Shown here: positions 2,757 through 49,109 of the stretch, piece after piece
Layout: each line of letters starts with the position of its first letter
Position numbering within the stretch: the stretch's first letter is position 1
Origin: an uncultured bacterium
GTDB lineage: Bacteria > Patescibacteriota > Patescibacteriia > Magasanikbacterales > GWA2-37-8
NCBI GenBank assembly: GCA_937903605.1
Contig: CALCZC010000007.1
Coordinates: 189,805 to 253,804 of the forward strand
Direction: 5' to 3'
Length of the DNA stretch: 64,000 bases
Notes under the pieces: generated by a model
Seen by the model: the letters and a program-made list of their open reading frames with translations, nothing else
Told to the model about the DNA's origin: nothing
Database searches by the model: none
Made by a program: the position numbers and the translations under genes

Positions 2757-5700
2757 TTATTCCACAGGAACATCTGCCGGAGTTTCAGCCGGGGCTGCAG
2801 GTTCTTCAGTCGGAGAGGTATCTGGTACCGGTTCTTCTACCGGAGGTGTTTCTTCAACCGGCTCTACCGGCGTTTCAGCCGGAGGCGTTTCTGTTACAGG
2901 TTCTATTGGAGTTTCCGCCGGCGCTTCTATCGGCGCGGATGGCGTGGATTCGCCAGAGCTTTCAATCGGCGGTAAAATTATTTCTTCGTTTATTTTATTA
3001 TAAAAATCTTTTAACGATTCTACCGTGCCGTTTGAACTATAAATTTTCGTATCATCCTCCACTATATAGGCCTGCCAATTAAATATTACACTATCGGTCG
3101 CTTGTTCGGTCAAAGTAATTTCAAATCCGCGAGTCGTGACATTTTGTAATTTCCAACGACCGTCAAAATTGAGAGGGGTAATTCCCATCATCGGTGGTAC
3201 GGCATATTCTCCTTCAAAATCAACTTTCACCGAAATATCTCCGGCCATAATTTGCGCTTGACCCAACAAATTAGTTTCCATTTCTTCAGGGATTTCTTCA
3301 ACAATTTCTTCAGTAGTCAACATCGGGGTTTCCTTTGAATCATCTTGCCATACGCGATAATAATCAATATCTATATATTGCGCCCCGCCTCCGGCTACGG
3401 TATTGTTCATAATCATAGAAGTCAACCCGACAGTCGGAATATTGGTCGTTGCTTGACCGCAATAAAACCAATCCACTCCGTCAGTTGCATCGTTATCAAT
3501 ATAAAAATTTATCTCTCCCGTCCCGTCACCATTACTGGAAACTACTTCTATTTTTGCCACCCCAAATACAGCAGTGTTGATAGCTTGTCCCGCACAATCA
3601 ACAACAGTGGAAGCTCCGGCGCGACGCGAAACACCCTGCCACTCTCCGTTGGTGGTGTTATTGGTAAAATAAACACCGTTTAGAGGGTCTGCAGTTTGAG
3701 CTCGAGACAGATTGCTCAAACCAATTCTAAATCGGATATTGGCAGTAACAGCGGACGGAGAAGCTTTGAAAGTTATGACCGGTAAATTGGCGGTATTAAA
3801 GACAAGATTGGCGGTTCCGGCAGTTGTAATCCCATGATATGCCAAACAAGAGTTGGCGCCATTTGTCGCTTGCTGTCTGCCGATACCGTTTACTCCGTTT
3901 GCCACTGAACTCCAAGTACAAGCCGTATTTTCATCAACTGTGAATTGTTGAAAATCACCCCAAGCATACAAAGTATCTGCAGTCACATTTCCTCTACCGC
4001 GCATAAATTCTTCGCCAAAATAAGAATTTCTAGCAATAAAAGCTCCTGTTTCTAAACTCATCCCAAAATTTTGTGATAAATATTTTGCCTCACCCACAAC
4101 AACTCCATCTGAATTTAGCCAATGTTGTAAAGCTGCAGTTTGTCCAACCATACCCTGAACAGCTAAACCAACATTAGTAGTAGTAGCAGTCAAAATATGA
4201 ACCTGACCGGAAAAAACATTTGTATCATTAGCAAAACCACCAAAGCCTATTTCACCAGTTCTAGCTATTTGCATATCTGAATATTCTGTACTACTACCTA
4301 CGGGCTGACGCTTAATACTCCAATAAGGAGTATCGGCTCTGGTATCTAAACGGAAAATAGCACCAATAGAAGAAGTATTTCTATCCCCCAGCTGAGTAGC
4401 ATTAATACCATAGCTCAATAATGTTCCCCCGACTTCTGAGAATAAACCAGCTTTCCATGTAGAACTGTTGGTTACATTCAAACCAATTAAATCAGTGGAA
4501 CCAGCTCGATTAGGGAAAGCATTTGGACCAATTATCCAACCGTCAGTGCCTGAAGTAATTCTGAAATCTCCTTCGTTCAAACTCAATTTAGAAATAGGGG
4601 TAGACGTCCCAATGCCTATATATCCACCATTGGTTATTCTCATTCTTTCATTTTCCGCTTGCCAACCATCAGTCATAAAAATAAGTGCAGCATCGGTACT
4701 GGTAGATTCATTTATAAAATAAGAACCACCCGGAGCTACAGAGTCCCAAACTGCACTTCCTGGCAAAACACCCGCGAAACCTGGAGTGTCTATGCCATAA
4801 TAACCCAATTGTAAAAATTCAACATCACTCCCAGCTTTTAAATTAAATAAAGCTGTTTTGGTACTACTTCCAGATTTTACCTCTGCAGTAAGACCATTAT
4901 CCGGTTCATAAATTCGCAATTTATAATAACCAATATCCGAAGTTCCTATACCGACATGGCCGTATTGATTTACAATTAATGCTGGTTCAGAAGAACTAGT
5001 CATAATACTCAACAACGGATAAGTGGTTGTGCCGGTAATGGATAACATAGCCCCAGGATCTTGCTGATTAATACCTATTGTACCGGTAGAATTCAAAGTT
5101 AAAACATTGTTAAATAATCCCGCATCATCTACAAAATAAAATATAAATTTATCATCTTGATTATCATCTCTTTTTGAAAGTTGCCAATATTTATTATTTT
5201 GGGTTACAAAATTCAAGTTTGTAGCTCCCGCAATAGTTTTTTGTAAAATTGTCATTGCCGGGCCTGCATTATCTGTCACTACATGCAAAGGTGCTTGAGG
5301 AGTAGTAGTACCGATACCAACAGGACCACCAATCACCATTTTACCTGTGGTAGTAACATCGCCATTTACCTGTAAAGCAGTTGAACTCACTAAACCCGAA
5401 ACCATCAAACCGTTTGATAATTCAAATTGTGTAGCAGAATTATTCCAACGTAGATAATTATTAATGCCATTGTTAAAATAAAAATTATTATTTCCTGCAG
5501 TAGTAAATTGAATATTATCACCAAACAAAACCGGACCGGATAAAGTAGATGTTCCGGTGACCGATAAATTTCCACCTAACTTAGAGTGTCCAACTACTTC
5601 AAATTTTACATTACTACTGGTGGCACTATTTCCTACCACTACTGCATAATCTCCTGTTAAGTCCGGATAAACAACATTAGCGGTCGTAGTTACCCAAATA

Positions 5701-8700
5701 CTACTGCCTCCGCCACCAGATGGCCAAGTATTGCGAGTCACTCCGCCCAAAGTGATGGAATCAGCCACCAAAATATCAGTGGTACTCACTGTGCCTAAAA
5801 CATTGATATTGTTTACAGTCAAATCCGAAATCGTAGTTGTAGCCAAAATTGAATTACCCAAAACATTCAGCGTGCCGTCAATATATACCGAAGAACTGGC
5901 ATAAATAATATCTTTGAACCACACCGGAAGAGTTGTGGAAGTTGTCAAAACATTTCCGCCGTTGTGCGAAGCTAACAACCAGTTGGCGGTCGCCCCGCCG
6001 GCACTCGCCAACAAATTTCCGTTCCAATAAAGATCTCCGCCAATGTTGTAAATAGAGTTGGTGGTAGTGGCTGTGGCCGTATCTCCAATATAAATACCTC
6101 CGTCAACGTGGAGTTTGTTAAGCGGATCATAAAGTGCTTGGCCGATACCCACAAACCCGGTTCCTGCCTGAATAGTCAAAATGTCGTCCCCTTCCGCCCC
6201 GACTGAGTCGTCCCAAAGACGAAAATCCAGAGAACTGGTCGGCATATACCAAGACCAACCATTGTCATAACTACCACTATTCACGCGACGGATATAATGT
6301 CCCGCCTCACCGTTACCATTGGCGACAATGGTAATATAATTACGAGAGCTGGTAGGACTGGAGCTTAAATCAGATCCCCAAACTTCCAAAAGATCATAAG
6401 GTGTGGAAGTGCCTATTCCAAAAGAACCCTCAAATGTGGCAAAAGATTTATTTTGTAAATCACCATGACCGTTACTAATAAAATATTCCACTGTGCCGGA
6501 AACTCCGTCCGCAGTATATCTCACCGGGAAAATATCAGTATCTGTTTTGAACTGGTTGGAAGTCAACACTATATGATCGTTGGCCGTATTGGCGGAGCTA
6601 AGGTAAACATTGTTTTCACTAACCCCCGGACCGGCCCAAGCAAAAGAAGAATTGGTGATTTGCACTCCGGATAAAACAGTGGAACTGTTCACATAAGCCG
6701 GAATCAATTTTACGCTTCCCGGAGCCACAGTCAAAATTGTTGCAAATGCCGAATCAACATAAGTATTAAATCTGGCATTATCATGATAAAAAATCTTAAC
6801 GTTATTTGCCGGAGCAGTGGCATAAATCGGAAAAGTGATTACAGGGTCTTTGATAGTAGCAATACTACGTAAACTTTGATTATCGGTATAAAGCACAGAT
6901 AGATCATCGTCACTGTCATAAGTATTTACAAAAATTTCCGGGTTATAGATATAAGCGTTGGTAATAGTTGAGCTGGTTAGATAAAAAATGGTATTTATTT
7001 TTGTCCCAACAGTATTGGTAGTTTGAGTAAAGTTGTATTTATTGGCGGTAAAACTTTCCAAAGTGCCGTTTTCTTGATAAACCACGGCTTGGATATCTTT
7101 ACTACCGTCCGTATATTTCGCACCCACAGTTACATTTTTCAAAACAGATTTACCTGCGCTTTTTATCTCTACCGCATAATCATCCGTATTTTCCAGATCA
7201 ACCATAGATAAAACACTGCCATAAGTCATATCAAACGTGACTTTGCCTTTGATAAAAGTATTACAACCCATACCTCGAACTACTACAAAATCTTTCATCT
7301 GCAAATCTTCGGTGAAAGTTCCGGCGGAAACTGAAACCGTATAAGGATTGGTAGAAGACGATAAAACCGCGGCCGTATCAATAGCGTTTTGGATGGTTTT
7401 TTTTGCTCTGGCCGTACTGTTGCCATCAAAACTGTCTTTACCGCTCACCGCGTTAACATAAATAATATTACCTTCAATAAGCGCGTCATTAATAACGATT
7501 TCCGACCAAACATTGTGATTATTATTGATATTGCGAAGTTCCATGATACCGTTATTGTCACGGAAACCATATCCTGCTGCTCCGGTCGTAGTGCCAAAAT
7601 TAATATAACGATTTTCTCCTTCAATAAAAACATTACCACTAATTGATAACGGGGCCAAAGGAGTGGAAGTACCGATACCAACATAACCGGCATTACCCCC
7701 GCCGGTTCCAACTATCACCATACTTCTTTGTTCGTCGGTTGGATCAACATCAAAAATAATATCTCCGCCCGAGGCCAATGTCGAAAGTAATAAATCACTG
7801 ACTGAATACAACGCCAAACTGCCGGAAATTCCCGGGAGTCCGTCATTCCAGCCGGAACTCAAGGCTGTCAAACCGCCCAATTTTCCCAAATCGTTATACA
7901 AACTAAATTCCGCAGTAGAAGAAGGACCGGAGTTGTTATTGTGAATAGCCAAATTTAATTCATCATTAGTATCTCCGTATAAATAAAAGGCCTTGCCATT
8001 GACAGTGGTAGTATTTATAGCCACTAAACCGTTTTCATCTATAATCACGCGCTCTGTGCCGGCTGTTTGAAAATGAATTTTGTTTTCATTTGGTGAAGCT
8101 TCGGTTTCCACTTTAGTATCTCCGTCCGCGTCTTGAATATATGTGCTAGTATTACCACCGACAACCGGCGAGCCGTTCCAATAAAGTTGCCCGCCAAGAT
8201 TATAAAGGGTGTAAGAAGTTACTGCCGGAGAAGTACTGCAAATAGACAATCCACCTATTAATGTCAAAGCGTTTTTTGGTGTGGTAGTACCAATACCGAT
8301 AAAACCGCTGCTAGACACAAAAATATTACTGGTCGGCGCCCAAGAATCTCCATCCCAATAAGCAAATTGCCCTTCGGTAACACCAGGATCAACAGCAGTC
8401 AAAGGAACACTATTCATAAGATAACTACCGGTAATATCTATATCTCCGTCAACAGTCAATTGTGAATTGGGAGTGGAAGTACCAATACCGACATTGTCAC
8501 TACTGCCTTGTACAAACAAGGCATAATCATTATCCGGCGTCTTAACTTGAAAATCATAATTTCCACTACTACTGTTAAATATCGCTCCTCCTTGGAAATA
8601 CATCAACGAATTAAACCCATCCAAAGTCATTAATTTATTATCAATCAAACTTTTACCATCACCGGTGTCGTTGTTATAAAAATTAAAAAGCAAATTGGAG

Positions 8701-11700
8701 TTTGTTCCATATTTTGACATCATCCAACCTCGCATACTGGAAGTAGAACCAAATCCATCGGTATCCGAATAAAGATACAATCCGGCAATAGCACTCCTAT
8801 CTCCGCTGATTGCGGATAATTTTGCCTCACTGCTAGTCGCTTGAACTCCGAGCATCGTTCTTTCTCCGGGATTGTCATTAACAAAGATTAAACCATTATT
8901 TCTATAATAATCAGCTTGATAAGATAGTTTCGGAAGAATAGCCATGCCCGTATCAATTTTGATAACATCTTGATTGATATTGGAGTGCCTACCAAATAAA
9001 ACCACCCCTTCTTCTTCAGCCAAAGCGTAAAAATAAACATTGGCCGGATTATTGATGCTAATATCGGCACTGGAAAAAGCTCCGTCGCTCGAAGAAATAT
9101 TTATGGACGAACTGTCTTTTTGATCAATATTCAAAGTGGCCGCTTTCTGCAAATAACTGGCCGTAACTTTGGTAGCGGAATCGTCATTGGTAATAATGTT
9201 ATAATCCAAACCCCACATGTTGGAATAACGAATTTCCGCATAAGATCCGTTTCCTTCTATAAAAAGCCCTGTGCCCAAATCGCTGTTGGATCCGAATTCA
9301 CTGCCAACCATATAAAAAGATGACGAACCTGTCGTACTTTTCAAATGTACAAATCTGTTTTCAACATTTTCCATATAAACATTTTCGACTTGAGCTGCAG
9401 CACCGTTGTCTAAATTCACACCAATATTGCCGATATTATAAAAATCTGATTTGAAAATATTTAACAAGTTGGCTACTTGCATATTTATACCTGTCTCTGT
9501 GTCTATAATCACCAATTCGGAAAAATCCATCCAAACACTGCCGGTATTACTAACTCTAATAGCATCGCAACCGGATGTATTTCGAAAACCGACGGTTTGT
9601 GAACCGTCAATGGTCAACAAACGAATAGAAAAATCATTTTCTTCAGAAAAATTTATTTCAAAAATAGGACCGGGAGAACTGACCAGGTCCGTTGTCGGAC
9701 GAATCATCACCGCTTCTGTACTCATACCTCGAATACTTTTTATGTGAGTACTGGTAACAACCAAAGTAGATGAAACATCATAAACTCCGGGATAAATATT
9801 TATTATAGTGTCATAATCAACACCATTAGCAAAAGCAACAGCGTCTTCCAAATTATCAAAATCTCCCCCGCTTTTGGCCACATTGATGATATGGTCAACT
9901 TTGGTCGAAAAATTATTCCAACCACCACTCGCGTTCTTCCATTGCATCACCCCGGCATTATCGCGAATACCATAACCTACTGTCCCTGTATTATTTCCGA
10001 AATTCAAATACCTATCCGCGCCGGTAATAGAAAGATTGCCATAAACATCCAAAGCGGAAAGAGGAGAAGTGGTACCGATACCGACAGAACCTCCAAAATA
10101 ATTCACAGATGCTGTACCATCGGAATAAATATTAAAATTGGAATTTTGAGCAAAATTTTGTTCTTCGATATAAAGTCCGTACAAACTTCCGATTGTTCCC
10201 GTTCCCGTGCCGCTGGTCGGGTTATTAATTCTCATTCCAAAAGCCGTTCCAATATTTCCTCCTTCTATACCAAAATCTGATTGAATAGCCGAAGCATTGG
10301 AAATAATCCCATTACCTATACCGTTTTCAATATAACCGCTTAAGCCCAAAGCCAATCCTATGTTTCCGCTAAAATTTACATCTCCGGAACCATTAGTCGC
10401 TGTTTGTCCTCTCAATCCGAAAGCAACACCAACACTTCCCGTGGAATTGTCCAACTCGGCAGAAGAAATTTGTCCCAAAATCATGTTAACCGATCCTGAA
10501 CCTTGATGAATAACTTGATTTAAAAGACCGGCGATAACTTCAAAATTATTATTATTACCTTCATTGGTTGTAACACTGAGCAAAGTATTGATTGTTGTAG
10601 AAGCATCTTCTATAGGATCAAGCTCTATACCCATAACATTACCCAAAGTAAAGCCGTCTCCTGAATTTGATAAATTTGTATATTTTTTATAAGAAGCAAA
10701 AACCGAACCGCTTGGAATCTCTGCGGGAAAATTTTCTCCCACCATCAATTGAGTGATCGTGGTGGTGGACAAAGTGGAACTTCCTATAACATTCAAGTTG
10801 TTATTTATTATCAAAGCTCCGGTCATGGTATCGCCTGCAACATTAACCCAATTGTCCGTACCGGAGACCATAAAAGAGGTACTAGTAAAACCACTCCCCA
10901 CCAAACTCGTGCCGTTAAACCAAATAAATTCATTGCTCGCAAAACTGCCGGCATTGGTGCCGCCATTGGCAATCGGCAAAATTCCCGCGATATCGGAAGT
11001 CAGGTTTACTGTTGAAGTAGACCAAACACCGTTGTTAATTTTTACAAAACCTGTCCAACCGCTAGTGTCTTGTCCTGTCCCGCCATAATTGGTCGCAATA
11101 ATATCACCCTGCCATGTACCGGCGGAAATAGTACCAAAAGAAGATGCTCCGGTTAAGATAAGATTGGCAATAGTAGTCGTTGCCATCAGAGTATTTCCGG
11201 TAATGGCTAAATTTCCACTAATACTGGAAGTGGCAGTGCTACTGTTCATGGTTAAGTTTGCACCTGTAAATCCGCCGGATAAAATATTTAAATTCAAATT
11301 GTTATCCAGAGCCAAAAGCGTATTGGCCACAGCAGTGGAAGAAGCATGAAAACCGTCAACTCTGTCGGAATTGAAAGCATACGGATGAGTCGCCAAAATC
11401 ACACGCGGACTGGCTTCGTTGTCACTTTCTATTTTTACCGCCAAATAATAAGTACCTGTGCTAAAATCCAAATAACTCGGAAAAGCGCCGCAAGCACCAA
11501 GATTTACGGTAAAATATCCTTGGGCATCAGGTTGAACTTTGGGACAATTTCCGGAACTGCCGTCATAGACTTCAGTCCAAAGCAAAGGTCCGGCGGAACT
11601 TGGCGTATCTGTAGGAACTCCGGTGTTTGCGTTGTTATAAATAGAAAATTGAATAGTGGTAGAAGTAGTAATCGGCGTTCCTCCGTTATCTCGCAATCTG

Positions 11701-11852
11701 CCTTGGTAATTTATCAGGTTTGGAATAGCTAAAACTTCTTTACCTATAAAAGAAAAAACCGTCACTAACGCAACAAAAAACATGGCTTTCTGTATATTCA
11801 TCTTTAGAAAGTTAACAAGGAGTTTGGATTTTATTCCCCTCCGAATATTCAT
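2757..11852 (-). CDS. Giant (3031 aa) secreted cell-surface protein with beta-helix domains, recurring GIGT(S/T)TP motif and Pro/Glu/Thr-rich C-terminus
   Basis: Uninterrupted 9.1-kb ORF with an N-terminal signal peptide. Two beta-helix cap-like motifs (AVSGKDSFDGNSTARAKKTIQNAIDTA; AKSGGDFDNLEDAVAFANG). At least 8 copies of VGIGTSTP-like motifs. Tail (ETP/VEP)n. Confidence 0.8.
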   Translation of the reverse strand: MNIRRGIKSKLLVNFLKMNIQKAMFFVALVTVFSFIGKEVLAIPNLINYQGRLRDNGGTPITTSTTIQFSIYNNANTGVPTDTPSSAGPLLWTEVYDGSSGNCPKVQPDAQGYFTVNLGACGAFPSYLDFSTGTYYLAVKIESDNEASPRVILATHPYAFNSDRVDGFHASSTAVANTLLALDNNLNLNILSGGFTGANLTMNSSTATSSISGNLAITGNTLMATTTIANLILTGASSFGTISAGTWQGDIIATNYGGTGQDTSGWTGFVKINNGVWSTSTVNLTSDIAGILPIANGGTNAGSFASNEFIWFNGTSLVGSGFTSTSFMVSGTDNWVNVAGDTMTGALIINNNLNVIGSSTLSTTTITQLMVGENFPAEIPSGSVFASYKKYTNLSNSGDGFTLGNVMGIELDPIEDASTTINTLLSVTTNEGNNNNFEVIAGLLNQVIHQGSGSVNMILGQISSAELDNSTGSVGVAFGLRGQTATNGSGDVNFSGNIGLALGLSGYIENGIGNGIISNASAIQSDFGIEGGNIGTAFGMRINNPTSGTGTGTIGSLYGLYIEEQNFAQNSNFNIYSDGTASVNYFGGSVGIGTTSPLSALDVYGNLSITGADRYLNFGNNTGTVGYGIRDNAGVMQWKNASGGWNNFSTKVDHIINVAKSGGDFDNLEDAVAFANGVDYDTIINIYPGVYDVSSTLVVTSTHIKSIRGMSTEAVMIRPTTDLVSSPGPIFEINFSEENDFSIRLLTIDGSQTVGFRNTSGCDAIRVSNTGSVWMDFSELVIIDTETGINMQVANLLNIFKSDFYNIGNIGVNLDNGAAAQVENVYMENVENRFVHLKSTTGSSSFYMVGSEFGSNSDLGTGLFIEGNGSYAEIRYSNMWGLDYNIITNDDSATKVTASYLQKAATLNIDQKDSSSINISSSDGAFSSADISINNPANVYFYALAEEEGVVLFGRHSNINQDVIKIDTGMAILPKLSYQADYYRNNGLIFVNDNPGERTMLGVQATSSEAKLSAISGDRSAIAGLYLYSDTDGFGSTSSMRGWMMSKYGTNSNLLFNFYNNDTGDGKSLIDNKLMTLDGFNSLMYFQGGAIFNSSSGNYDFQVKTPDNDYALFVQGSSDNVGIGTSTPNSQLTVDGDIDITGSYLMNSVPLTAVDPGVTEGQFAYWDGDSWAPTSNIFVSSSGFIGIGTTTPKNALTLIGGLSICSTSPAVTSYTLYNLGGQLYWNGSPVVGGNTSTYIQDADGDTKVETEASPNENKIHFQTAGTERVIIDENGLVAINTTTVNGKAFYLYGDTNDELNLAIHNNNSGPSSTAEFSLYNDLGKLGGLTALSSGWNDGLPGISGSLALYSVSDLLLSTLASGGDIIFDVDPTDEQRSMVIVGTGGGNAGYVGIGTSTPLAPLSISGNVFIEGENRYINFGTTTGAAGYGFRDNNGIMELRNINNNHNVWSEIVINDALIEGNIIYVNAVSGKDSFDGNSTARAKKTIQNAIDTAAVLSSSTNPYTVSVSAGTFTEDLQMKDFVVVRGMGCNTFIKGKVTFDMTYGSVLSMVDLENTDDYAVEIKSAGKSVLKNVTVGAKYTDGSKDIQAVVYQENGTLESFTANKYNFTQTTNTVGTKINTIFYLTSSTITNAYIYNPEIFVNTYDSDDDLSVLYTDNQSLRSIATIKDPVITFPIYATAPANNVKIFYHDNARFNTYVDSAFATILTVAPGSVKLIPAYVNSSTVLSGVQITNSSFAWAGPGVSENNVYLSSANTANDHIVLTSNQFKTDTDIFPVRYTADGVSGTVEYFISNGHGDLQNKSFATFEGSFGIGTSTPYDLLEVWGSDLSSSPTSSRNYITIVANGNGEAGHYIRRVNSGSYDNGWSWYMPTSSLDFRLWDDSVGAEGDDILTIQAGTGFVGIGQALYDPLNKLHVDGGIYIGDTATATTTNSIYNIGGDLYWNGNLLASAGGATANWLLASHNGGNVLTTSTTLPVWFKDIIYASSSVYIDGTLNVLGNSILATTTISDLTVNNINVLGTVSTTDILVADSITLGGVTRNTWPSGGGGSSIWVTTTANVVYPDLTGDYAVVVGNSATSSNVKFEVVGHSKLGGNLSVTGTSTLSGPVLFGDNIQFTTAGNNNFYFNNGINNYLRWNNSATQFELSNGLMVSGLVSSTALQVNGDVTTTGKMVIGGPVGIGTTTPQAPLHVVTDNAGPAMTILQKTIAGATNLNFVTQNNKYWQLSKRDDNQDDKFIFYFVDDAGLFNNVLTLNSTGTIGINQQDPGAMLSITGTTTYPLLSIMTSSSEPALIVNQYGHVGIGTSDIGYYKLRIYEPDNGLTAEVKSGSSTKTALFNLKAGSDVEFLQLGYYGIDTPGFAGVLPGSAVWDSVAPGGSYFINESTSTDAALIFMTDGWQAENERMRITNGGYIGIGTSTPISKLSLNEGDFRITSGTDGWIIGPNAFPNRAGSTDLIGLNVTNSSTWKAGLFSEVGGTLLSYGINATQLGDRNTSSIGAIFRLDTRADTPYWSIKRQPVGSSTEYSDMQIARTGEIGFGGFANDTNVFSGQVHILTATTTNVGLAVQGMVGQTAALQHWLNSDGVVVGEAKYLSQNFGMSLETGAFIARNSYFGEEFMRGRGNVTADTLYAWGDFQQFTVDENTACTWSSVANGVNGIGRQQATNGANSCLAYHGITTAGTANLVFNTANLPVITFKASPSAVTANIRFRIGLSNLSRAQTADPLNGVYFTNNTTNGEWQGVSRRAGASTVVDCAGQAINTAVFGVAKIEVVSSNGDGTGEINFYIDNDATDGVDWFYCGQATTNIPTVGLTSMIMNNTVAGGGAQYIDIDYYRVWQDDSKETPMLTTEEIVEEIPEEMETNLLGQAQIMAGDISVKVDFEGEYAVPPMMGITPLNFDGRWKLQNVTTRGFEITLTEQATDSVIFNWQAYIVEDDTKIYSSNGTVESLKDFYNKINEEIILPPIESSGESTPSAPIEAPAETPIEPVTETPPAETPVEPVEETPPVEEPVPDTSPTEEPAAPAETPADVPVE

Positions 11853-25545: not shown

Positions 25546-25619
25546 ACTGGGTTGACCCTGTGAAATATCGTCCGCCTTAGCGGACGATCCTGTTTATAAC
25601 AGGATTTCACTGGGTTGAC
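25546..25619. repeat. Inverted-repeat-bounded element, copy A
   Basis: ccctgtgaaat ... atttcactggg; flanked by direct repeat actgggttgac; inner hairpin gtccgccttagcggac. Confidence 0.55.
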
Positions 25620-42271: not shown

Positions 42272-42275
42272 TTTA

Positions 42276-42345
42276 CTCCGTGAAATTTCATCCCGATGAA
42301 AAATCGGGATGAACCTGCCAAAGGCAGGATTTCACAGGGGTGAAC
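42276..42345. repeat. Inverted-repeat-bounded element, copy B
   Basis: ctccgtgaaat ... atttcacaggggtgaac; inner hairpins tcatcccgat/atcgggatga and cctgcc/ggcagg. Confidence 0.55.
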
Positions 42346-42349
42346 CCGG

Positions 42350-43177
42350 TTAAACTCTAAACTTTTTCCCTAGAAAATCTCTAAAAGCTTTTTTATCAAA
42401 ATCCCAAAAATTTGTTGGTACTGGAATTTTGCCCAAACTATTTTCCGCTTCTATGGTAAAAATCGGATATGCTAGCCCAGATAATTTTTTTCGTAATTCA
42501 CTATAAATTTTTATTTCTTTTTTCAGATCAACTTCAAACGGTTTAGCATTAGCAACCGGATCACAATGAAAAAGATAATAAGGTTTAACTCCGATTTCTG
42601 TCAGTTTTTCAAATAATTCTTGTAAGATTTTTACATTATCGTTTATTCCTTTCAAAAAAACAGTTTGACTCAAAATCATAGTTACACCTGTTTGTATTTT
42701 TTTTATTGCTTTGTCTGTTTCTTTGCTCAATTCATTAAAATGATTAACATGCAACATTAGATAAATTGGTTTATTTTTAACTGTTTTTAAAATTTTTACT
42801 ATTTTATCGTTTATGGCTTTTGGATAAGTTATTGGCAATCTAGTACCGATACGAATCATTTTTATTTGTGATAAATTTCCCAATTCTTTCAAACATTTTT
42901 CTAAAACTTCCGGCGTATTCAGCGGATCTCCGCCGGAAAAAATTAACTCTTTTATTTCTTTATTTTTTATCAAGTATCTTTTTATTTCCTTTATTTCTTT
43001 ATTTTTTATCAAGTATTTCATTTTCATCATTTCCCTTTTTCGCATACAAAAAGCACATTCTTGGGCGCAAATATTATTTACCAAAATCAAGGCCCTATTT
43101 TTATAACGGCAAATCAATTTAGGTACCGGCATATTTTGAATTTCCAAAAACGGATCGCTGTTGTTTATTTTTTTCAT
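42350..43177 (-). CDS. epmB: Radical SAM lysine 2,3-aminomutase-like protein (EpmB/YjeK family), short form with in-frame 12-aa tandem duplication
   Basis: CAQECAFC (CX3CX2C) followed by LIFSGGDPL; adjacent to epmA. Confidence 0.6.
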   Translation of the reverse strand: MKKINNSDPFLEIQNMPVPKLICRYKNRALILVNNICAQECAFCMRKREMMKMKYLIKNKEIKEIKRYLIKNKEIKELIFSGGDPLNTPEVLEKCLKELGNLSQIKMIRIGTRLPITYPKAINDKIVKILKTVKNKPIYLMLHVNHFNELSKETDKAIKKIQTGVTMILSQTVFLKGINDNVKILQELFEKLTEIGVKPYYLFHCDPVANAKPFEVDLKKEIKIYSELRKKLSGLAYPIFTIEAENSLGKIPVPTNFWDFDKKAFRDFLGKKFRV

Positions 43178-44205
43178 ATATTTTCCACTTGATCTTTGGC
43201 AGACATAAAAATCACATCGTTTATATCCTTGGCGCCCGTGAAAAGCATTATTGCTCTATCCAAGCCCAAAGCAATTCCGCCAGATAGCTTCATTCCACTT
43301 TGCAAAGCCTTTATAAATTCAGTATCTATCGGGAAAACTTCTTTCCCGAGTTCTTGTCTCAAATTTCTATCTTTTTCCAAATTTTCTTGTTGTTTTTGCG
43401 CATCAGTTAACTCACCAAAAGCATTGCAAAGTTCCAAACCTGCAATATAACATTCAAAACGTTCTGCATATCTACTATCTTCACAAAATTGCGACAACGA
43501 AGTCATTTGTGCGGGATAATCATAGATAATAACCGGCTTTTCCCAACCCAATTTCGGCTCTATTTCATTCAAAAATATTTTATAAAACAAATCTTCATAT
43601 TTTTCTTTTTCTTCAACTTGATATCCTTTTTCTTTTGCCAAAATAGACATTTTTTCTATATTCAAATAATCATCTAAATTAATTCCTAAATATTTTTGCC
43701 AAATTTCTTTCATCTGCATTCTGTCCCAAGCAATATTTATCGAGATATTTTTATCATTTCTACTGACAAAATCCTGACTCAAGGTCTGACCGATACTTTT
43801 GAATAAATTTTCCAAATCATCCATAATGTCCGTCAATTTTCCGGGCGAACGATACCATTCTATCATGGTAAATTCGGGATTGTGTGTTCCGCCAAAATCT
43901 TCTCTGTTACGAAAGCAAGGGCAAATTTCAAAAATTTTTTCATACCCGGCGCAAAGCAATTTTTTCAGTGCATATTCCGGAGAAGTGTGTAAATAAAATG
44001 GATACTCTTGGCCCATAGGATGAATATATCTAATCCCGATAGGATCTAGATACGGCTCTTGTGAAGCAGTTTTTACCGCTATCGGGGTTTGCGCTTCAAC
44101 AAAACCGAGCGACCAAAAAAACTCTCTTGTTTTTTTCAAAATTAAGAGTTTTTTATCATAAATTTCCTTAGTCTTTGGGTTGTCTTTTAGTTCTTTCCAA
44201 TTCAT
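43174..44205 (-). CDS. epmA: EF-P lysyltransferase EpmA (GenX/PoxA; class II LysRS paralog)
   Basis: Class II aaRS motif 2 CPCFRNREDFGGTHNPEFTMIEWY; 343 aa; lacks an anticodon-binding domain. Confidence 0.7.
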   Translation of the reverse strand: MNWKELKDNPKTKEIYDKKLLILKKTREFFWSLGFVEAQTPIAVKTASQEPYLDPIGIRYIHPMGQEYPFYLHTSPEYALKKLLCAGYEKIFEICPCFRNREDFGGTHNPEFTMIEWYRSPGKLTDIMDDLENLFKSIGQTLSQDFVSRNDKNISINIAWDRMQMKEIWQKYLGINLDDYLNIEKMSILAKEKGYQVEEKEKYEDLFYKIFLNEIEPKLGWEKPVIIYDYPAQMTSLSQFCEDSRYAERFECYIAGLELCNAFGELTDAQKQQENLEKDRNLRQELGKEVFPIDTEFIKALQSGMKLSGGIALGLDRAIMLFTGAKDINDVIFMSAKDQVENI

Positions 44206-44298
44206 ACAAAATATTTGCTTATTTTAAACAAATATTGGGCTTTTGTCAATATTTAAAACCGCCCCTTTATTTAGGAGGCGGTTTTAAATATTTTTTAT

Positions 44299-45249
44299 TT
44301 AAGGGTTTATTTTAATCGGAACTAAACTTGGGGTAACTTTTACTGGTGTAACTCTCAACTGTTCTCTAAGACGAATTTTACTTACTTTTCCAACGACCTC
44401 CACGCCTTTCTCATAGGCTTCTACTTCCAAAGGCATATCATCATCATATTGAGCTAGTTTCTCCGGGGCTAGCATGGCAACAACCGGATCAAAGTCTAAA
44501 GTCCAAATCGCTTTTTTAAGAGCTTTCCAAAAATCTTTTATAAATCCGGCAGCCGCATGGTCGAAAAGTTCATTAAACCAACGAATCGCATATTTATCTC
44601 TATTGCCGGCGTATTGTTCACAGTGGGTTAGTTCATGAGCCATCCAATAAATGTTATCGTTGCTAAGATCTGTTAATTTTTTAGCGCTAGCAAAAGTTTT
44701 AACATACTTTTCATCACCAAACATTATTTTATAGCCATCCGTGATTCCCAGGTGAGGAGAATTTAATTTCTCTTTTAGTCTTGGCGCATAACCAAAAGTC
44801 ACTCTCTTTAAATCGCATTTTTTAGCATCATAATAAGGAGACAGGTCTGTAACCATCTGAGTAGAAAATTTTTGCATTTTTGCGCCTTTGCCCACCCAAT
44901 CCATATATAAACTAAAAACTTTTGCCAATAATCCGTTCCAACCAGACCAACTCATCAAAGTTTTGGGGGCGGTGGTAGTTTCAGCTAAATAGATTTTTTC
45001 CAATAGCACTGAAGGGGCAATAAGTTTATCATTTATCAAATTTACAATATCATCATCTGACAAAAGAGCGTAATTTACAGCCGGTAATTTAACGGTTGTA
45101 TTTTTATTCAAAGCATTGTCGCTAATACTAAATACTATATTACTCTGAACAATGTCTTGTTCGTTTATAAAGATTTGGTAAGTCATAAACCCTACAAACC
45201 CGACGGTTAAAAACAACAAAAACATTAAAATTTGTGTTGAATATTTCAT
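44299..45249 (-). CDS. Membrane-anchored protein with HExxH(C)EQ zinc-metallopeptidase-like motif (DUF4157-like)
   Basis: N-terminal TM; MAHELTHCEQY. Confidence 0.45.
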   Translation of the reverse strand: MKYSTQILMFLLFLTVGFVGFMTYQIFINEQDIVQSNIVFSISDNALNKNTTVKLPAVNYALLSDDDIVNLINDKLIAPSVLLEKIYLAETTTAPKTLMSWSGWNGLLAKVFSLYMDWVGKGAKMQKFSTQMVTDLSPYYDAKKCDLKRVTFGYAPRLKEKLNSPHLGITDGYKIMFGDEKYVKTFASAKKLTDLSNDNIYWMAHELTHCEQYAGNRDKYAIRWFNELFDHAAAGFIKDFWKALKKAIWTLDFDPVVAMLAPEKLAQYDDDMPLEVEAYEKGVEVVGKVSKIRLREQLRVTPVKVTPSLVPIKINP

Positions 45250-45329: not shown

Positions 45330-48227
45330 TTAAATTTTTTCCACTGCAAGTTGAATTTTTTCTCCATCAATCTCCGTTTCTTTATTTAGTGTTTCTCGTT
45401 GTTCTATTTTTTCTGCTAAAACACTTTGTTTTAATTTCTCGGAATTTTTTTCAACAATATCTTTTAGGTTTTCGCTTTTAGTATTAAAAATCAAAACAAT
45501 TTTATCGTTAACCGTCAATTTCTGATCTTTACGCATTTGGTTGACGGTTCGCACTATTTCTCGAACTGCACCTTCTTTTTTAAGTTCAGGTGTAATTTCC
45601 GTATCTAACCAAACTTTCAAGCCATTGTTTTCTTTAATATTATCGACAAAAGAGAATTTTTTATCAAAAACAGCTTCTTTGACATTTAATTCTTCGGCTA
45701 GAATCTTTAATAACCCTTCTTCTGTCTTTTCGTTTATTACAACTTTAGACAAGGGCTGGCGAACCTTGAGACTTTTTTCTGCTCGCAAAGATAAACCGAG
45801 CTCCACTGCTTTGCGTACTTTTTCCATTTCTTCCAAAACATCTTTGTCTATTTTTTCCGTTTCTGGCCAGTCTTCCAAATGCACACTTTCTTTTTCTCCG
45901 CCCAAAGACAAATATATTTTTTCCGCGATAAACGGCGTAACAGGCGCCATAACTTTTGACAATACAGATAAAACTTCATGAGTAGTAGATAAAGCGGCTT
46001 TTTTATCTTCTTCATCATTACCTTTGAAACGATCGCGAGAACGACGTACATACCATTGTGATAACTCGGTCACAAATTCCAAAATAGGTCGGTTGGCTTT
46101 TACCAAACGATAATTTTCCATATTTTCGGTAATTTCTTTTACCAGTAAATTTAATTTAGCCAAAATCCATTTATCCAAAATGTTTTTTGATTTTATTTTT
46201 TCCGGTTTTTTACCTTCACTAAACATTTCATAAAATTCATAGACGTTCCAGAGGGTATTTACCAACTTACCATAAATTTCTCGGACGCTTTCTTCATTAA
46301 AATTTAGGTCCTCGGCTTCCATAACCGGAGAAGTGGCCAGATAATATCTCACCGCATCCGCACCATATTTTTGCAACAGCATTTCCGGATCCGGATAATT
46401 GCGTAAGCTTTTACTCATTTTTTTGCCGTCAGCGGCCAAAACCATACCGTTTACAATCACATTTTTGAAGGCTGGAACATTTTTGATTTTGGGAATGACT
46501 GATTTTCCTTCTTGTGATAAAGCGGTAGCTAAAATATGTAAGGTATAAAACCAACCTCGAGTTTGATCTTGTCCTTCGGCGATAAATTCAGCTGGAAAAG
46601 ATTTTTCAAATTTTTCTTTATTTTCAAAAGGATAGTGCATTTGTGCATAAGGCATACTACCACTCTCAAACCAGCAATCCAAAACTTCCGGAATTTTATA
46701 ATATTCTTTACTGTCTTTTTTGATAACTATTTGATCCACAAAGTGTTTGTGCAAATCCGTGATTTTTTGCCCGCTCAACTCTTCCAATTCTTTAACCGAA
46801 CCGATACAAATACGATCGCCATCTTTGCTTTCCCAAATAGGAAGAGGTGTTCCCCAAAAACGGTTACGCGAAATTGCCCAATCACGAGCCGAATCTAACC
46901 AATCACCAAAACGACCTTCTTTAATATGACTGGGAATCCAATTTATTTTCTGATTATTTTTTAACATCTGATCTTTGATATCTGTCACTTTTACAAACCA
47001 ACTGTCGGTTGCATAATTAAGCAACGGCGTGTCACAACGCCAACAATGCGGATAACTATGTTCTATTTTTTCTTTGCTAAATAATTTATTTTGCCCGGCC
47101 AACCATTTGATAATTTCTACATCGGTTTTTTGCGGATCTTCTTTTGGTTTTACTTCTTGACCTACAAAATCAGTTACTTCTTCTACAAAACGACCGGTCA
47201 TATCCACATGTTGTACCAGTGGAATTTTTTCCTTTTGTCCGACATTAAAATCATCTTCGCCGAAAGCTGGTGCAATATGTACCACTCCGGTACCATCAAC
47301 CGTAGTGACAAAAACAGCATTAACCACACGAAAGGCATTTTCTGTGTTGGCAAAATAAGGAAATAAAGGCTCATATTTCAAACCTGTCAAACGATCCCCT
47401 TCTATTTGTTTGATTATTTCAAACGGGATATCTTTGAAAACCGTTTCCGCTCTATCTTTTGCTACCAAATAATGAGTATCTTCTGCTTTTACCACTATAT
47501 ATTGAATATCTCCGCCCAATGCCAACAAAACATTTCCGGGCAATGTCCATGGTGTCGTGGTCCAAGCCAAAATATATAATTCTTTTAAATCTAAAATTTC
47601 AGGATTTGTAACTTTAAATTTTACCGTTACAGAAATATCTTTTATATCTTTATATCCTTGAGACGCTTCGAAATTGGAAAGCGGGGTGCTACATCGCGGA
47701 CAAATATGCATGGGCTTGTGTCCTTTATAAATCAAATTTTGGTCCCAGAGCTGTCGAAACACCCACCAAACACTTTCCATAAATTCCACATTCATGGTTT
47801 TGTAATCATTTTCCATATCAACCCAACGACCAATACGACGAACGGTTTTTTTCCACTCTTTAGCATAGGTCATGACACTACTACGACAAGCTTCATTAAA
47901 TTTTGCGATACCATAATCTTCTATATCTTTACGTCCACCTAAACTTAAATCTTTTTCCACAATATTTTCCACTGGTAAACCATGACAATCCCAGCCCCAG
48001 CGTCGTTCAACTTTAAATCCGCGCATCGTAAAATAGCGCGGCACCACATCTTTCATCAAAGAAGCCACGATGTGACCATAATGCGGCAAACCGGTAGCAA
48101 ACGGCGGACCATCATAAAAAGCATAGGGCTTGGAATCCGGATTTTTTTGTAAAGATTTCTCAAAACATTGGTGTTTGTCCCAATATTCAAGTATTTTATT
48201 TTCTTCTTCGTTAGCGTTGTATAACAT
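45330..48227 (-). CDS. ileS: Isoleucine--tRNA ligase
   Basis: PPFATGLPHYGHI (HIGH), GWDCHGLPVE (IleS-specific), KKMSKSLRN (KMSKS); 965 aa. Confidence 0.8.
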   Translation of the reverse strand: MLYNANEEENKILEYWDKHQCFEKSLQKNPDSKPYAFYDGPPFATGLPHYGHIVASLMKDVVPRYFTMRGFKVERRWGWDCHGLPVENIVEKDLSLGGRKDIEDYGIAKFNEACRSSVMTYAKEWKKTVRRIGRWVDMENDYKTMNVEFMESVWWVFRQLWDQNLIYKGHKPMHICPRCSTPLSNFEASQGYKDIKDISVTVKFKVTNPEILDLKELYILAWTTTPWTLPGNVLLALGGDIQYIVVKAEDTHYLVAKDRAETVFKDIPFEIIKQIEGDRLTGLKYEPLFPYFANTENAFRVVNAVFVTTVDGTGVVHIAPAFGEDDFNVGQKEKIPLVQHVDMTGRFVEEVTDFVGQEVKPKEDPQKTDVEIIKWLAGQNKLFSKEKIEHSYPHCWRCDTPLLNYATDSWFVKVTDIKDQMLKNNQKINWIPSHIKEGRFGDWLDSARDWAISRNRFWGTPLPIWESKDGDRICIGSVKELEELSGQKITDLHKHFVDQIVIKKDSKEYYKIPEVLDCWFESGSMPYAQMHYPFENKEKFEKSFPAEFIAEGQDQTRGWFYTLHILATALSQEGKSVIPKIKNVPAFKNVIVNGMVLAADGKKMSKSLRNYPDPEMLLQKYGADAVRYYLATSPVMEAEDLNFNEESVREIYGKLVNTLWNVYEFYEMFSEGKKPEKIKSKNILDKWILAKLNLLVKEITENMENYRLVKANRPILEFVTELSQWYVRRSRDRFKGNDEEDKKAALSTTHEVLSVLSKVMAPVTPFIAEKIYLSLGGEKESVHLEDWPETEKIDKDVLEEMEKVRKAVELGLSLRAEKSLKVRQPLSKVVINEKTEEGLLKILAEELNVKEAVFDKKFSFVDNIKENNGLKVWLDTEITPELKKEGAVREIVRTVNQMRKDQKLTVNDKIVLIFNTKSENLKDIVEKNSEKLKQSVLAEKIEQRETLNKETEIDGEKIQLAVEKI

Positions 48228-48257
48228 AATAAAAAATTTTTAATTTTTAATTTTTTA

Positions 48258-48318
48258 CCCCGTGAAATCCTATCGTAGATAGGATCGTCCGCCACAGCGG
48301 AAGATATTTCACAGGGGT
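48258..48318. repeat. Inverted-repeat-bounded element, copy C
   Basis: ccccgtgaaat ... atttcacaggggtgaat. Confidence 0.55.
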
Positions 48319-48330
48319 GAATTTTTAAAT

Positions 48331-48545
48331 AAAAAAACACGCGGTTGCGTGTTAAGAGCCCTGGTTAAGGGCGGTACCATCTTAACTTTATACTTAATTT
48401 AGTGGTTTTTACGGGCCCGACCGGGAGAGTCTATTTTTTGCTAAAATAAGCAAATTTCTTTCTCCAACGCTCTCTAAAAAAGATCCTTGTTGATAGCAAG
48501 TCTTAGCGTTTTTAACTTGTTCTAATAATACCTATTTATAAAATA
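48331..48545 (-). promoter_or_regulatory. T-box-like riboswitch leader of ileS
   Basis: Minus strand: TTGACA-17 nt-TATTAT promoter, Stem-I-like region, conserved T-box core UGGUACCGC, then terminator acacgcaaccgcgtgttttttt. Confidence 0.55.
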
Positions 48546-48671
48546 TTTGTCAATTTATTTTAAATACTATCAACATCTCTAATAAATTGCCAAAACTCTA
48601 CAAACCTTATATAATAAGGATATTAAATTACAATCTTGTAATCTTTAAATCTTGCAATTTTGCAACCTCTT

Positions 48672-49109
48672 ATGTTCTACATCGCCGCCGACCATGCCGG
48701 TCATAAACTCAAAAAAGAATTGGAGCAAATTTTCAAAAACCAAGAAATGGAGTTTGAAGATTTGGGGGCCAAAAACTATGATGAACAGGACGATTTCACT
48801 GATTTTGTCATCCCTTTAGCCAAAAAAGTGTTGGAAACAGGTAATAAAGGAGTCTTGATTTGTGGCAGTGGACACGGTATGTGTATAGCCGCCAACAAAG
48901 TCGCTGGCATCAGAGCGATTGTCGGTTATAGTATTTCTGGAAGCGAACTCGGGCGTAAACACAACGACGCCAATGTTTTATGTTTGGCAGGCAGACTTTT
49001 GACCAAAGATCACGCCGCTGCTATTATCAAAACTTTTTTAAATACTGAATTTTCCGGCGAGGAAAGATTTATTCGAAGAAATAAAAAAATATCCGATCTA
49101 GAAAAATAA
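48672..49109 (+). CDS. rpiB: Ribose-5-phosphate isomerase B
   Basis: MFYIAADHAGHKLK..., GVLICGSGHGMCIAANKVAGIRA; ATG at 48672 preferred over the TTG at 48660. Confidence 0.8.
   Translation: MFYIAADHAGHKLKKELEQIFKNQEMEFEDLGAKNYDEQDDFTDFVIPLAKKVLETGNKGVLICGSGHGMCIAANKVAGIRAIVGYSISGSELGRKHNDANVLCLAGRLLTKDHAAAIIKTFLNTEFSGEERFIRRNKKISDLEK

Follow-up and report, generated by a model that had tools for sequence, protein, structure and literature searches.

The 64,000-nucleotide window analysed here comes from an uncultured bacterium of the Patescibacteria, or Candidate Phyla Radiation (CPR; contig CALCZC010000007.1, positions 189,805 to 253,804), and carries on its minus strand an isoleucyl-tRNA synthetase gene, ileS (48227-45330), preceded by a structured leader. 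The gap between ileS and the divergent rpiB-rpe genes is 444 bp; read along the minus strand it holds a promoter, the 180-nt leader, a 59-nt hairpin element, an AU-rich stretch and the ATG. The leader spans 48510-48331 (-), from its basal helix to a U-tract, and is AU-rich (40% GC). The gene regulated encodes a type 2 (eukaryote-like) enzyme of 965 amino acids (aa), which scores 835 bits against the isoleucine--tRNA ligase 8wnd, 829 bits against cytoplasmic IleRS 9wqs/7d5c, 784 bits against 8c8u and 339 bits against S. aureus 1ffy. An earlier note on this DNA had proposed that the leader is a tRNA-Ile-sensing T-box on ileS in a CPR-like genome, with alternative antiterminator and terminator folds. 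The core of that proposal is supported by covariance and homology. The leader is most likely a genuine T-box acting by transcription attenuation and, by analogy with better-known systems, we hold with good confidence that it would tune ileS transcription to tRNA-Ile charging.

Searching GTDB genomes with the window IleRS gave 80 loci, whose taxon labels are those of the record titles. The nearest relatives are 96% (L001, titled 'uncultured Gammaproteobacteria bacterium'), 91% (L010, Patescibacteria group) and 82% (L002, Candidatus Magasanikbacteria) identical in IleRS. Ten loci (L001, L002, L004, L008, L010, L016, L023, L032, L034 and L075) carry TGGNACC[GA]C upstream of ileS, and the helices flanking this motif visibly covary among them. 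The window leader and those of nine of the ten loci (L001 being too short) served as the seed of a covariance model, R1, with 158 positions and 34 pairs. R1 scores the window leader at 136.6 bits with E = 7e-37, and the next match in the 64 kb, with filters off, has E = 0.2; these E-values are rough. Outside the seed, 11 ileS leaders are matched at E = 1e-26 to 1e-9, all of them upstream of ileS. At E<=1e-8 the family comprises 21 of the 80 loci, or 23 counting the truncated L001 and the weak L068. A further 120 loci came from metagenomes, scanned with a pattern that extends from the Stem II S-turn to the T-box, and R1 matches 89 of these.

Covariation runs through the whole structure. The 21-sequence alignment was fitted to R1, which biases its counts towards the structure; in it 86% of cells are paired, and compensatory changes occur at 29 of the 34 pairs. 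The picture from a plain MAFFT alignment is the same. The observed values were reached in none of 500 shuffles, and sliding the partner by 1-3 columns left at most 49% paired. The agreement extends to the decoding construct of the N. farcinica ileS leader (PDB 6UFM; PMC10651847, Supplementary Table 2, gives its sequence): a MAFFT alignment that includes it is 79% paired, with compensatory changes at 18 of 27 pairs, pseudoknot included, and none of 500 shuffles matched this. The structure applied to that alignment was one that we had derived by comparison, and of the solved N. farcinica and M. tuberculosis modules it was the N. farcinica 6UFM sequence alone that was aligned. R1 also gives 22-48 bits to high-GC, actinobacteria-like ileS leaders. 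The motifs AUCA, AAGAA, CCCGUAA, AAUUAAG and UGGUACC are shared by lineages whose IleRS proteins are only 52-65% identical.

Short motifs alone are near chance. The window has three TGGNACCRC sites where 1.5 are expected and, set against shuffles, 12 promoter-like sites (7.1 expected) and three terminator-like sites (1.9 expected). The leader lies far beyond chance because of the R1 E-value and the covariation of its helices, not because of these motifs. What the sequences themselves show is the elements of the leader, conserved and covarying, their homology to an ileS decoding module of solved structure, and a hairpin with U-tract that is conserved as well.

The generic Rfam model does not find this leader. 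A scan of the whole window with Rfam 15 at gathering score (93 bits for RF00230) returned two tRNAs only and no T-box, and RF00230 gave no match in 48150-48700 even at E<=10, a difference from canonical class I leaders. We rejected this negative as evidence against a T-box, as the relatives, mostly actinobacteria-like, also fall far below threshold. Eight high-GC actinobacteria-like ileS leaders and one low-GC leader score 29-48 bits, and the CPR relative L075 scores 61.2 bits (E = 7e-11), with 76 Stem I positions reduced to 6 nt. With relatives at 29-61 bits, RF00230 is therefore insensitive to the ultrashort architecture and its negative result is uninformative. The earlier note had paired a subthreshold Infernal score with a lack of Stem I/specifier architecture as grounds for abandoning the idea: the score is indeed below threshold, but the architecture is present, in an ultrashort form that aligns with the ileS T-box from N. 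farcinica. The TBDB class II model, for its part, has been searched in Actinobacteria only, plus leaders already found by the class I model. The detection gap in RF00230 and TBDB means that T-box surveys undercount.

The leader opens with the Stem I domain (48510-48466 (-)), which aligns with residues 1-29 of N. farcinica 6UFM. Its basal helix pairs 48510-48505 with 48471-48466 (AACGCU/AGCGUU), and above it stands the Stem I hairpin (48500-48486), a 4-bp CUUG/CAAG stem closed by the 7-nt terminal loop CUAUCAA. Compensatory changes occur at every pair of both helices. The specifier AUC, an Ile codon, occupies loop positions 3-5 (48494-48492) and is followed by the purine A at 48491. The earlier note had found this triplet and placed it in an A/U-rich internal loop; it sits in the terminal loop instead. 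AUCA is invariant in alignments A1-A3, and AUC(A) occurs in nearly all ileS leaders of the family. The M. tuberculosis ileS specifier is likewise AUC (PMC11297988). Between the hairpin and the 3' strand of the basal helix lies a variable insert (48485-48472), GAUCUUUUUUAGAG. The 'agagag' that had drawn attention earlier does exist at 48475-48470, but it is divided between this insert and the basal-helix 3' strand and is not a conserved box.

The insert position is of some interest in the relatives. CPR members often have an extra small hairpin after the GA that follows Stem I (L002, L013, L017, L018, L019, L069 and L004; examples are UUUCC/GGAAA, UUCC/GGAA, UCCC/GGGA, GGCGC/GCGCC, UCAAC/GUUGA and GUCGC/GCGAC). 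Lying between Stem I and the basal-helix 3' strand, such a hairpin makes the base of Stem I a three-way junction. In the window the insert holds just UCU/AGA around a U-run.

Stem II (48465-48426 (-)) consists of a lower helix GGAG/CUCU and an upper helix UUUGCU/AGCAAA, separated by an S-turn internal loop with AAAGAAA on the 5' side and AAAUAGA on the 3' side. Compensatory changes are found at all six pairs of the upper helix and three of the four pairs of the lower, and the S-turn sequences AAGAA and AGUAGA are conserved as far as N. farcinica. The Stem IIA/B pseudoknot element follows at 48423-48403 (-) (CGGUCGGGCCCGUAAAAACCA), with IIA formed by CGG/CCG and IIB by GG/CC (48417-48416 with 48405-48404). 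The pseudoknot motif CGG...CCCGUAA is nearly invariant, and the A-U pair that relatives have in IIB is G-C in the window. A linker (48402-48387 (-)) then carries a conserved purine string, AAAUUAAGU, and AUAAA; its residues A112, A113, U115, A116, A117 and G118 are invariant or nearly so, and the purine string AAUUAAG is conserved. In the broad T-box family such a string flanks a Stem III helix (RRRxG-Stem III-AA).

These modules place the leader beside the ultrashort Stem I (US) class, described as translational, restricted to ileS and mostly actinobacterial (PMC7583486 sections 2 and 6.2; bioRxiv 10.1101/2023.02.28.530422; PMC1262725), and known from N. farcinica 6UFM, M. tuberculosis 6UFG and M. 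smegmatis (PMC7583486; bioRxiv 10.1101/2023.02.28.530422). As in that class, the gene regulated is ileS (here for a type 2 enzyme), AUC-A is presented by the terminal loop of a short hairpin that stands on a basal helix, without an elbow-binding platform, and the bulge reads UGGUACC. The correspondence between 6UFM and the CPR leaders is one-to-one: basal helix, internal loop ending in GA, short hairpin, Stem II lower helix, AAGAA opposite AGUAGA, Stem II upper helix, and CGGG-loop-CCCGU.A with the downstream pairing. With canonical class I T-boxes (RF00230; B. subtilis tyrS and glyQS, S. aureus ileS) the leader shares the T-box sequence, the A1/7-nt bulge/A2 arrangement with a purine string upstream of A1, Stem II with its S-turn, the pseudoknot, the terminator/antiterminator logic and a dedicated promoter. 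The ultrashort class, with its Stem II S-turn and IIA/B pseudoknot, had escaped the earlier note, as had the position of the specifier and the small overlap of terminator and antiterminator described below.

The discriminator, or antiterminator (48386-48351 (-); -11.2 kcal/mol), is built from helix A1 (48386-48380 with 48357-48351; GUUAAGA/UCUUAAC, 7 bp), the T-box bulge and the A2 hairpin (48372-48358; GCCC-UUAACCA-GGGC, 4 bp). The T-box core AUGGUACCGC was correctly recognised at the outset; its UGGUACC forms the 7-nt bulge at 48379-48373, within aagttaagATGGTACCGCCc. In relatives A1 is 94% and A2 99% paired, with compensatory changes at five of six and four of four pairs, respectively. The pair A48380-U48357 is replaced by G-C in relatives, and the bulge is therefore fixed at exactly 7 nt. 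An alternative pairing of GUUAAG with a second CUUAAC in the A2 loop was set aside, being conserved in neither L010 nor L001. AUC-A as specifier and UGGU in the bulge are seen in 90 of 93 leaders. Bacterial tRNA-Ile(GAU) has A73. One relative, L030 (241-382), has UGGC in place of UGGU although its specifier is AUC, which would call for a tRNA carrying G73 or leave the discriminator position mismatched.

Downstream lies an intrinsic terminator (48353-48336 plus a U7 tract ending at 48331, (-)), a 7-bp hairpin AACACGC-AACC-GCGUGUU of -9.1 kcal/mol. The terminator and its seven Us had been noted before as following immediately after the T-box sequence; both are there, but the A2 hairpin and the 3' strand of A1 intervene. 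Nor does the 5' half of the terminator overlap the T-box sequence, as had been claimed: the overlap is confined to AAC 48353-48351, the three nucleotides that end the A1 3' strand, whereas classical terminators take most of the A1 and A2 3' strands. Complementarity of the terminator stem is kept in relatives despite sequence change (AACACAC/GUGUGUU, AACCACC/GGUGGUU, GGCACGC/GCGUGUU and GACACCU/AGGUGUU), and their overlap with A1 ranges from 3 nt to full. The computed energies are nearly equal, at -15.5 kcal/mol for terminator plus A2 and -15.4 kcal/mol for antiterminator plus a residual 4-bp hairpin. The unliganded state would therefore permit termination, and a slight stabilisation of A1 could tip the balance.

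The small overlap invites another explanation, namely that the T-box is functional but is read out by something other than simple exclusion between A1 and terminator. Steric block of hairpin nucleation, altered pausing, RNA stability or leader processing may play this part, and the terminator of some relatives may be provided by a long-range helix around the discriminator. We consider this unlikely. It does draw on the fact that A1 and terminator share only 3 nt in the window clade, and on the atypical platforms of some relatives: L004, L008 and L016 lack an ordinary local terminator and have a Stem III region complementary to the sequence before the U-run, and the partner of the 3' strand in L069 is the T-box bulge itself. 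Yet the shared AAC supplies the basal pairs beside the U-tract. Basal pairs of intrinsic terminators matter most for transcript release. Moreover, relatives with full overlap (L023, L075, L030, L157 and L122), in which the whole A1 3' strand is taken into a classical terminator, show the classical logic within the same family, and we retain mutual exclusion of A1 and terminator as the preferred read-out.

None of the atypical platforms (L004 2797-2987, L008 2818-2983, L016 1516-1665 and L069 2737-2900) includes an ordinary local terminator. In the first three, a long-range helix around the discriminator would arise from pairing of the sequence just before the U-run with the Stem III region; in L069 the partner of this sequence is the UGGUACC bulge. 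A different case is L007 (~1450-1507; 62% IleRS identity), which has no T-box and carries a hairpin, AACACG-UUAAUGG-CGUGUU plus U7, directly before the ileS ATG. This hairpin, similar to the window terminator, may be the remnant of a deleted leader.

The choice between transcriptional and translational control can be addressed by comparing leaders that have AUC and a downstream ileS, divided into low-GC (<0.585) and high-GC (>=0.585). A U-run of at least 5 within ~70 nt of A1 is present in 37 low-GC leaders and absent from one, and present in one high-GC leader and absent from 31 (Fisher p = 1e-17); by base rate, 25% would be expected in low-GC loci, rising to 43% in AT-rich windows. In low-GC leaders the U-run is usually preceded by a hairpin. 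High-GC leaders have the ileS start ~75-100 nt downstream and no U-run, and actinobacterial ileS leaders are described in the literature as Shine-Dalgarno sequestrators. On the basis of this split, one decoding module is therefore coupled to two read-outs: an intrinsic terminator in low-GC, CPR-type leaders and, in high-GC leaders, a layout without U-run like that of the actinobacterial ones.

Might the window leader nevertheless be a translational T-box, as in the actinobacterial ultrashort class, with ribosome access controlled and the hairpin and U-run incidental? The decoding module has been described in the literature only for translational ileS T-boxes, which speaks for this possibility, but we regard it as very improbable. 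As its expression platform the window has an intrinsic terminator and U-tract where the actinobacterial class has a Shine-Dalgarno sequestrator. The start codon is situated in AU-rich sequence, 104 nt past the U-tract, and we found neither a Shine-Dalgarno sequence at the ileS start nor a Shine-Dalgarno-sequestering helix tied to the discriminator of the window leader. A 59-nt repeat separates terminator and start codon in the window and in L002, but not in L001 and L010; this insertion varies while the leader is conserved in all four, and a structural link between discriminator and start codon is therefore argued against. Finally, the U-run, usually after a hairpin, is kept in those 37 of 38 low-GC relatives, with compensatory changes. 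Attenuation at the terminator is the better account.

The TTGACA-17-TATTAT sequence reported earlier is there on the minus strand. This sigma-70-type promoter (48553-48525 (-)) has TTGACA at 48553-48548, a 17-nt spacer and TATTAT at 48530-48525; it matches consensus at 11 of 12 positions, and 14 nt separate the end of its -10 hexamer from the basal helix downstream. Among low-GC relatives, 39 of 47 have a promoter with at least 9 of 12 matches at most 80 nt upstream of the leader. Many read TTGACA-16/17-TAnnAT, and in most the -10 end lies ~7-21 nt from the basal helix. These promoters support the claim that the leader has its own. Attenuation by a leader peptide was considered and rejected, there being no Ile-rich small open reading frame (ORF); a GTG ORF at 48340 begins inside the 3' strand of the terminator stem and does not share the ileS frame.

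The mechanism that we propose borrows its tRNA binding, its sensing of charging and its choice between termination and read-through from the T-boxes of Firmicutes and Actinobacteria. Transcription would start at ~48518, and the nascent RNA would fold into an ultrashort Stem I that displays AUC-A in the 7-nt hairpin loop. The anticodon of tRNA-Ile(GAU) would pair with AUC, the Stem II S-turn would clamp the codon-anticodon duplex, and the IIA/B pseudoknot would orient Stems I and II. If the tRNA is uncharged, its 3'-ACCA would pair with UGGU of the bulge, stack on A1 and hold the antiterminator; A1 would then retain AAC 48353-48351, three basal terminator pairs would be blocked, and polymerase would be predicted to read through U7 into ileS. 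If the tRNA is charged or absent, A1 would go unstabilised, the 7-bp terminator would form and transcription would stop at ~48331-48335.

Several features weigh against a working T-box of this kind. The window IIA/B pseudoknot is the weakest module, at 3 + 2 bp, and the window S-turn reads AAUAGA, with A for the usual G. The 3-nt overlap makes mutual exclusion of terminator and antiterminator weak on paper. The linker holds no Stem III helix in the window, a difference from the US class, and none is found in about half of the relatives: a Stem III hairpin is present in L032, L075, L004 and L008, and not in the window, L010, L002, L005, L006 or L023. The distal Stem I platform for binding the tRNA elbow is likewise not present in the window leader, which thus differs from class I T-boxes in having no distal Stem I at all (specifier internal loop, AG bulge and elbow-binding distal loop); transcriptional T-boxes have been argued to need such a platform for kinetic reasons (PMC7583486, section 6.2). 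The A2 base pair 48372/48358 is G-C rather than the canonical G.U, in which the leader departs from both classes, and is A-U, U-A or G-C in CPR relatives; the conserved G.U at this position is the primary steric sensor of the aminoacyl group (PMC7583486). The leader folds with z = -2.0, and the minimum free energy fold of the whole leader is unlike the homology model; we did not use folding as evidence. No tRNA-Ile gene was found in the window or in the 84 loci scanned. The lone ARAGORN call of a tRNA-Ile, in L069, is a false positive inside the ileS reading frame.

Some of these weaknesses could be taken to mean that the leader is a decaying T-box relic, a constitutive 5' untranslated region (5' UTR) with a leaky terminator and no tRNA sensing. 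The weak pseudoknot, the missing Stem III, the G-C at the A2 base and the 3-nt overlap would all fit, as would the many CPR ileS loci without a T-box (57 of 80 scored as lacking one). We give this explanation very little credence, however. Across lineages, AUCA, AAGAA, CCCGUAA, AAUUAAG and UGGUACC show little or no variation, and every helix has compensatory changes. Moreover, most of the weakened features recur in independent CPR lineages, and they are therefore better described as a stable minimal design than as decay. A functional, minimal attenuator remains our interpretation of the leader.

How far does this design reach? The window leader differs from described US-class members in its host, which belongs to the Patescibacteria/CPR, and in being AU-rich, and many CPR members differ further in the extra small hairpin between Stem I and the basal-helix 3' strand. 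T-boxes have been surveyed in Firmicutes, Actinobacteria, Chloroflexi, Deinococcus-Thermus and a few Proteobacteria (PMC2494555). The ileS T-boxes of Chloroflexi/Dehalococcoides and Deinococcus (PMC2494555) offer a parallel, ileS being among the T-box genes in phyla that otherwise have few; the mid-GC metagenome leaders with terminators (L111, L157, L095 and L156) may belong to such phyla. CPR/Patescibacteria are not among the published T-box distribution lists that we found. Our literature search gave no paper linking T-boxes with CPR, and Sherwood 2015 or Vitreschak 2008 may already note US-type leaders with terminators.

A second group of leaders in our collection is of the valS type (L130 3673-3830 (+), L081 2519-2668 (-) and L092 5539-5687 (-); also L104, L139, L134, L168 and L179). 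Their S-turn, pseudoknot and T-box core are those of the ileS leaders, but the Val codon GUC(G) stands in the apparent terminal loop of a short Stem I. A ValRS-like gene lies downstream (PPPNVTG..HLGH; ~23% identical to IleRS), and most have a terminator. The L130 leader scores 63 bits with R1. In the literature, all US-class T-boxes are said to regulate ileS. We think the balance tilts slightly towards a wide use in CPR of a minimal transcriptional T-box without elbow platform, Stem III or G.U sensor, on valS with GUC as well as on ileS.

Where the CPR leaders came from can be approached through the synthetase. A recent transfer of ileS together with its T-box from Actinobacteria was considered and rejected, CPR and high-GC IleRS forming separate clades in a rough neighbour-joining tree without support values. 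In the same rough tree, CPR lineages with a T-box fall in at least four IleRS subclades, interspersed with lineages lacking one. An old presence with repeated loss seems to fit better than recent actinobacterial transfer, and we put this forward only tentatively.

The leader extends T-box regulation to the Patescibacteria/CPR, a group whose gene regulation has been called virtually unknown (PMC11665869). If the wider reading holds, the ultrashort module would be limited neither to Actinobacteria or ileS nor to translational control, and may be old and portable. The features missing from the CPR T-box are treated by the field as important for kinetic control and aminoacyl sensing, and an ultrashort module joined to a terminator constitutes a natural test of the kinetic argument for the elbow platform (PMC7583486, section 6.2). 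At 180 nt the leader is also a compact tRNA sensor of natural origin, and it could lend itself to structural studies or to engineering, also in those Patescibacteria that are genetically tractable.

The hairpin element between the terminator and the start codon is a three-way-junction repeat (48316-48258 (-)) that lies in the 5' UTR and is not part of the T-box. It folds at -32.1 kcal/mol (z = -4.8) and is an insertion relative to L001 and L010; L002 has a diverged copy at ~2930-2980. Two other copies lie in the window, at 42275-42344 (-), between a stop codon and a terminator, and at 25555-25615 (+). The outer stem, (U)UCACCCCUGUGAAAU/AUUUCACGGGGU, is conserved, and variation in the two inner hairpins is partly compensatory. 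For the pattern GTGAAAT-N25-55-ATTTCAC there are three sites against 0.03 expected. The repeat has no Rfam match, and exact patterns found nothing in the relatives' loci, though L002 has its diverged copy.

Downstream of ileS on the same strand, 42350-45249 (-) holds three genes: a 316-aa ORF without a Pfam match, a 343-aa protein consisting solely of a class II aminoacyl-tRNA synthetase core (tRNA-synt_2), its size pointing to an EpmA/PoxA-like paralogue, and a radical SAM protein of 275 aa. Together with ileS these could be an operon for translation-factor modification under the T-box leader. In three relatives, L019 (2493-2652), L060 (1971-2119) and L068 (2013-2212), 380-900 nt separate the T-box from the IleRS match downstream, and an ORF starts just past the terminator; these leaders may control a two-gene operon. 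Elsewhere in the window, a single ORF of 3031 aa occupies 2757-11852 (-).

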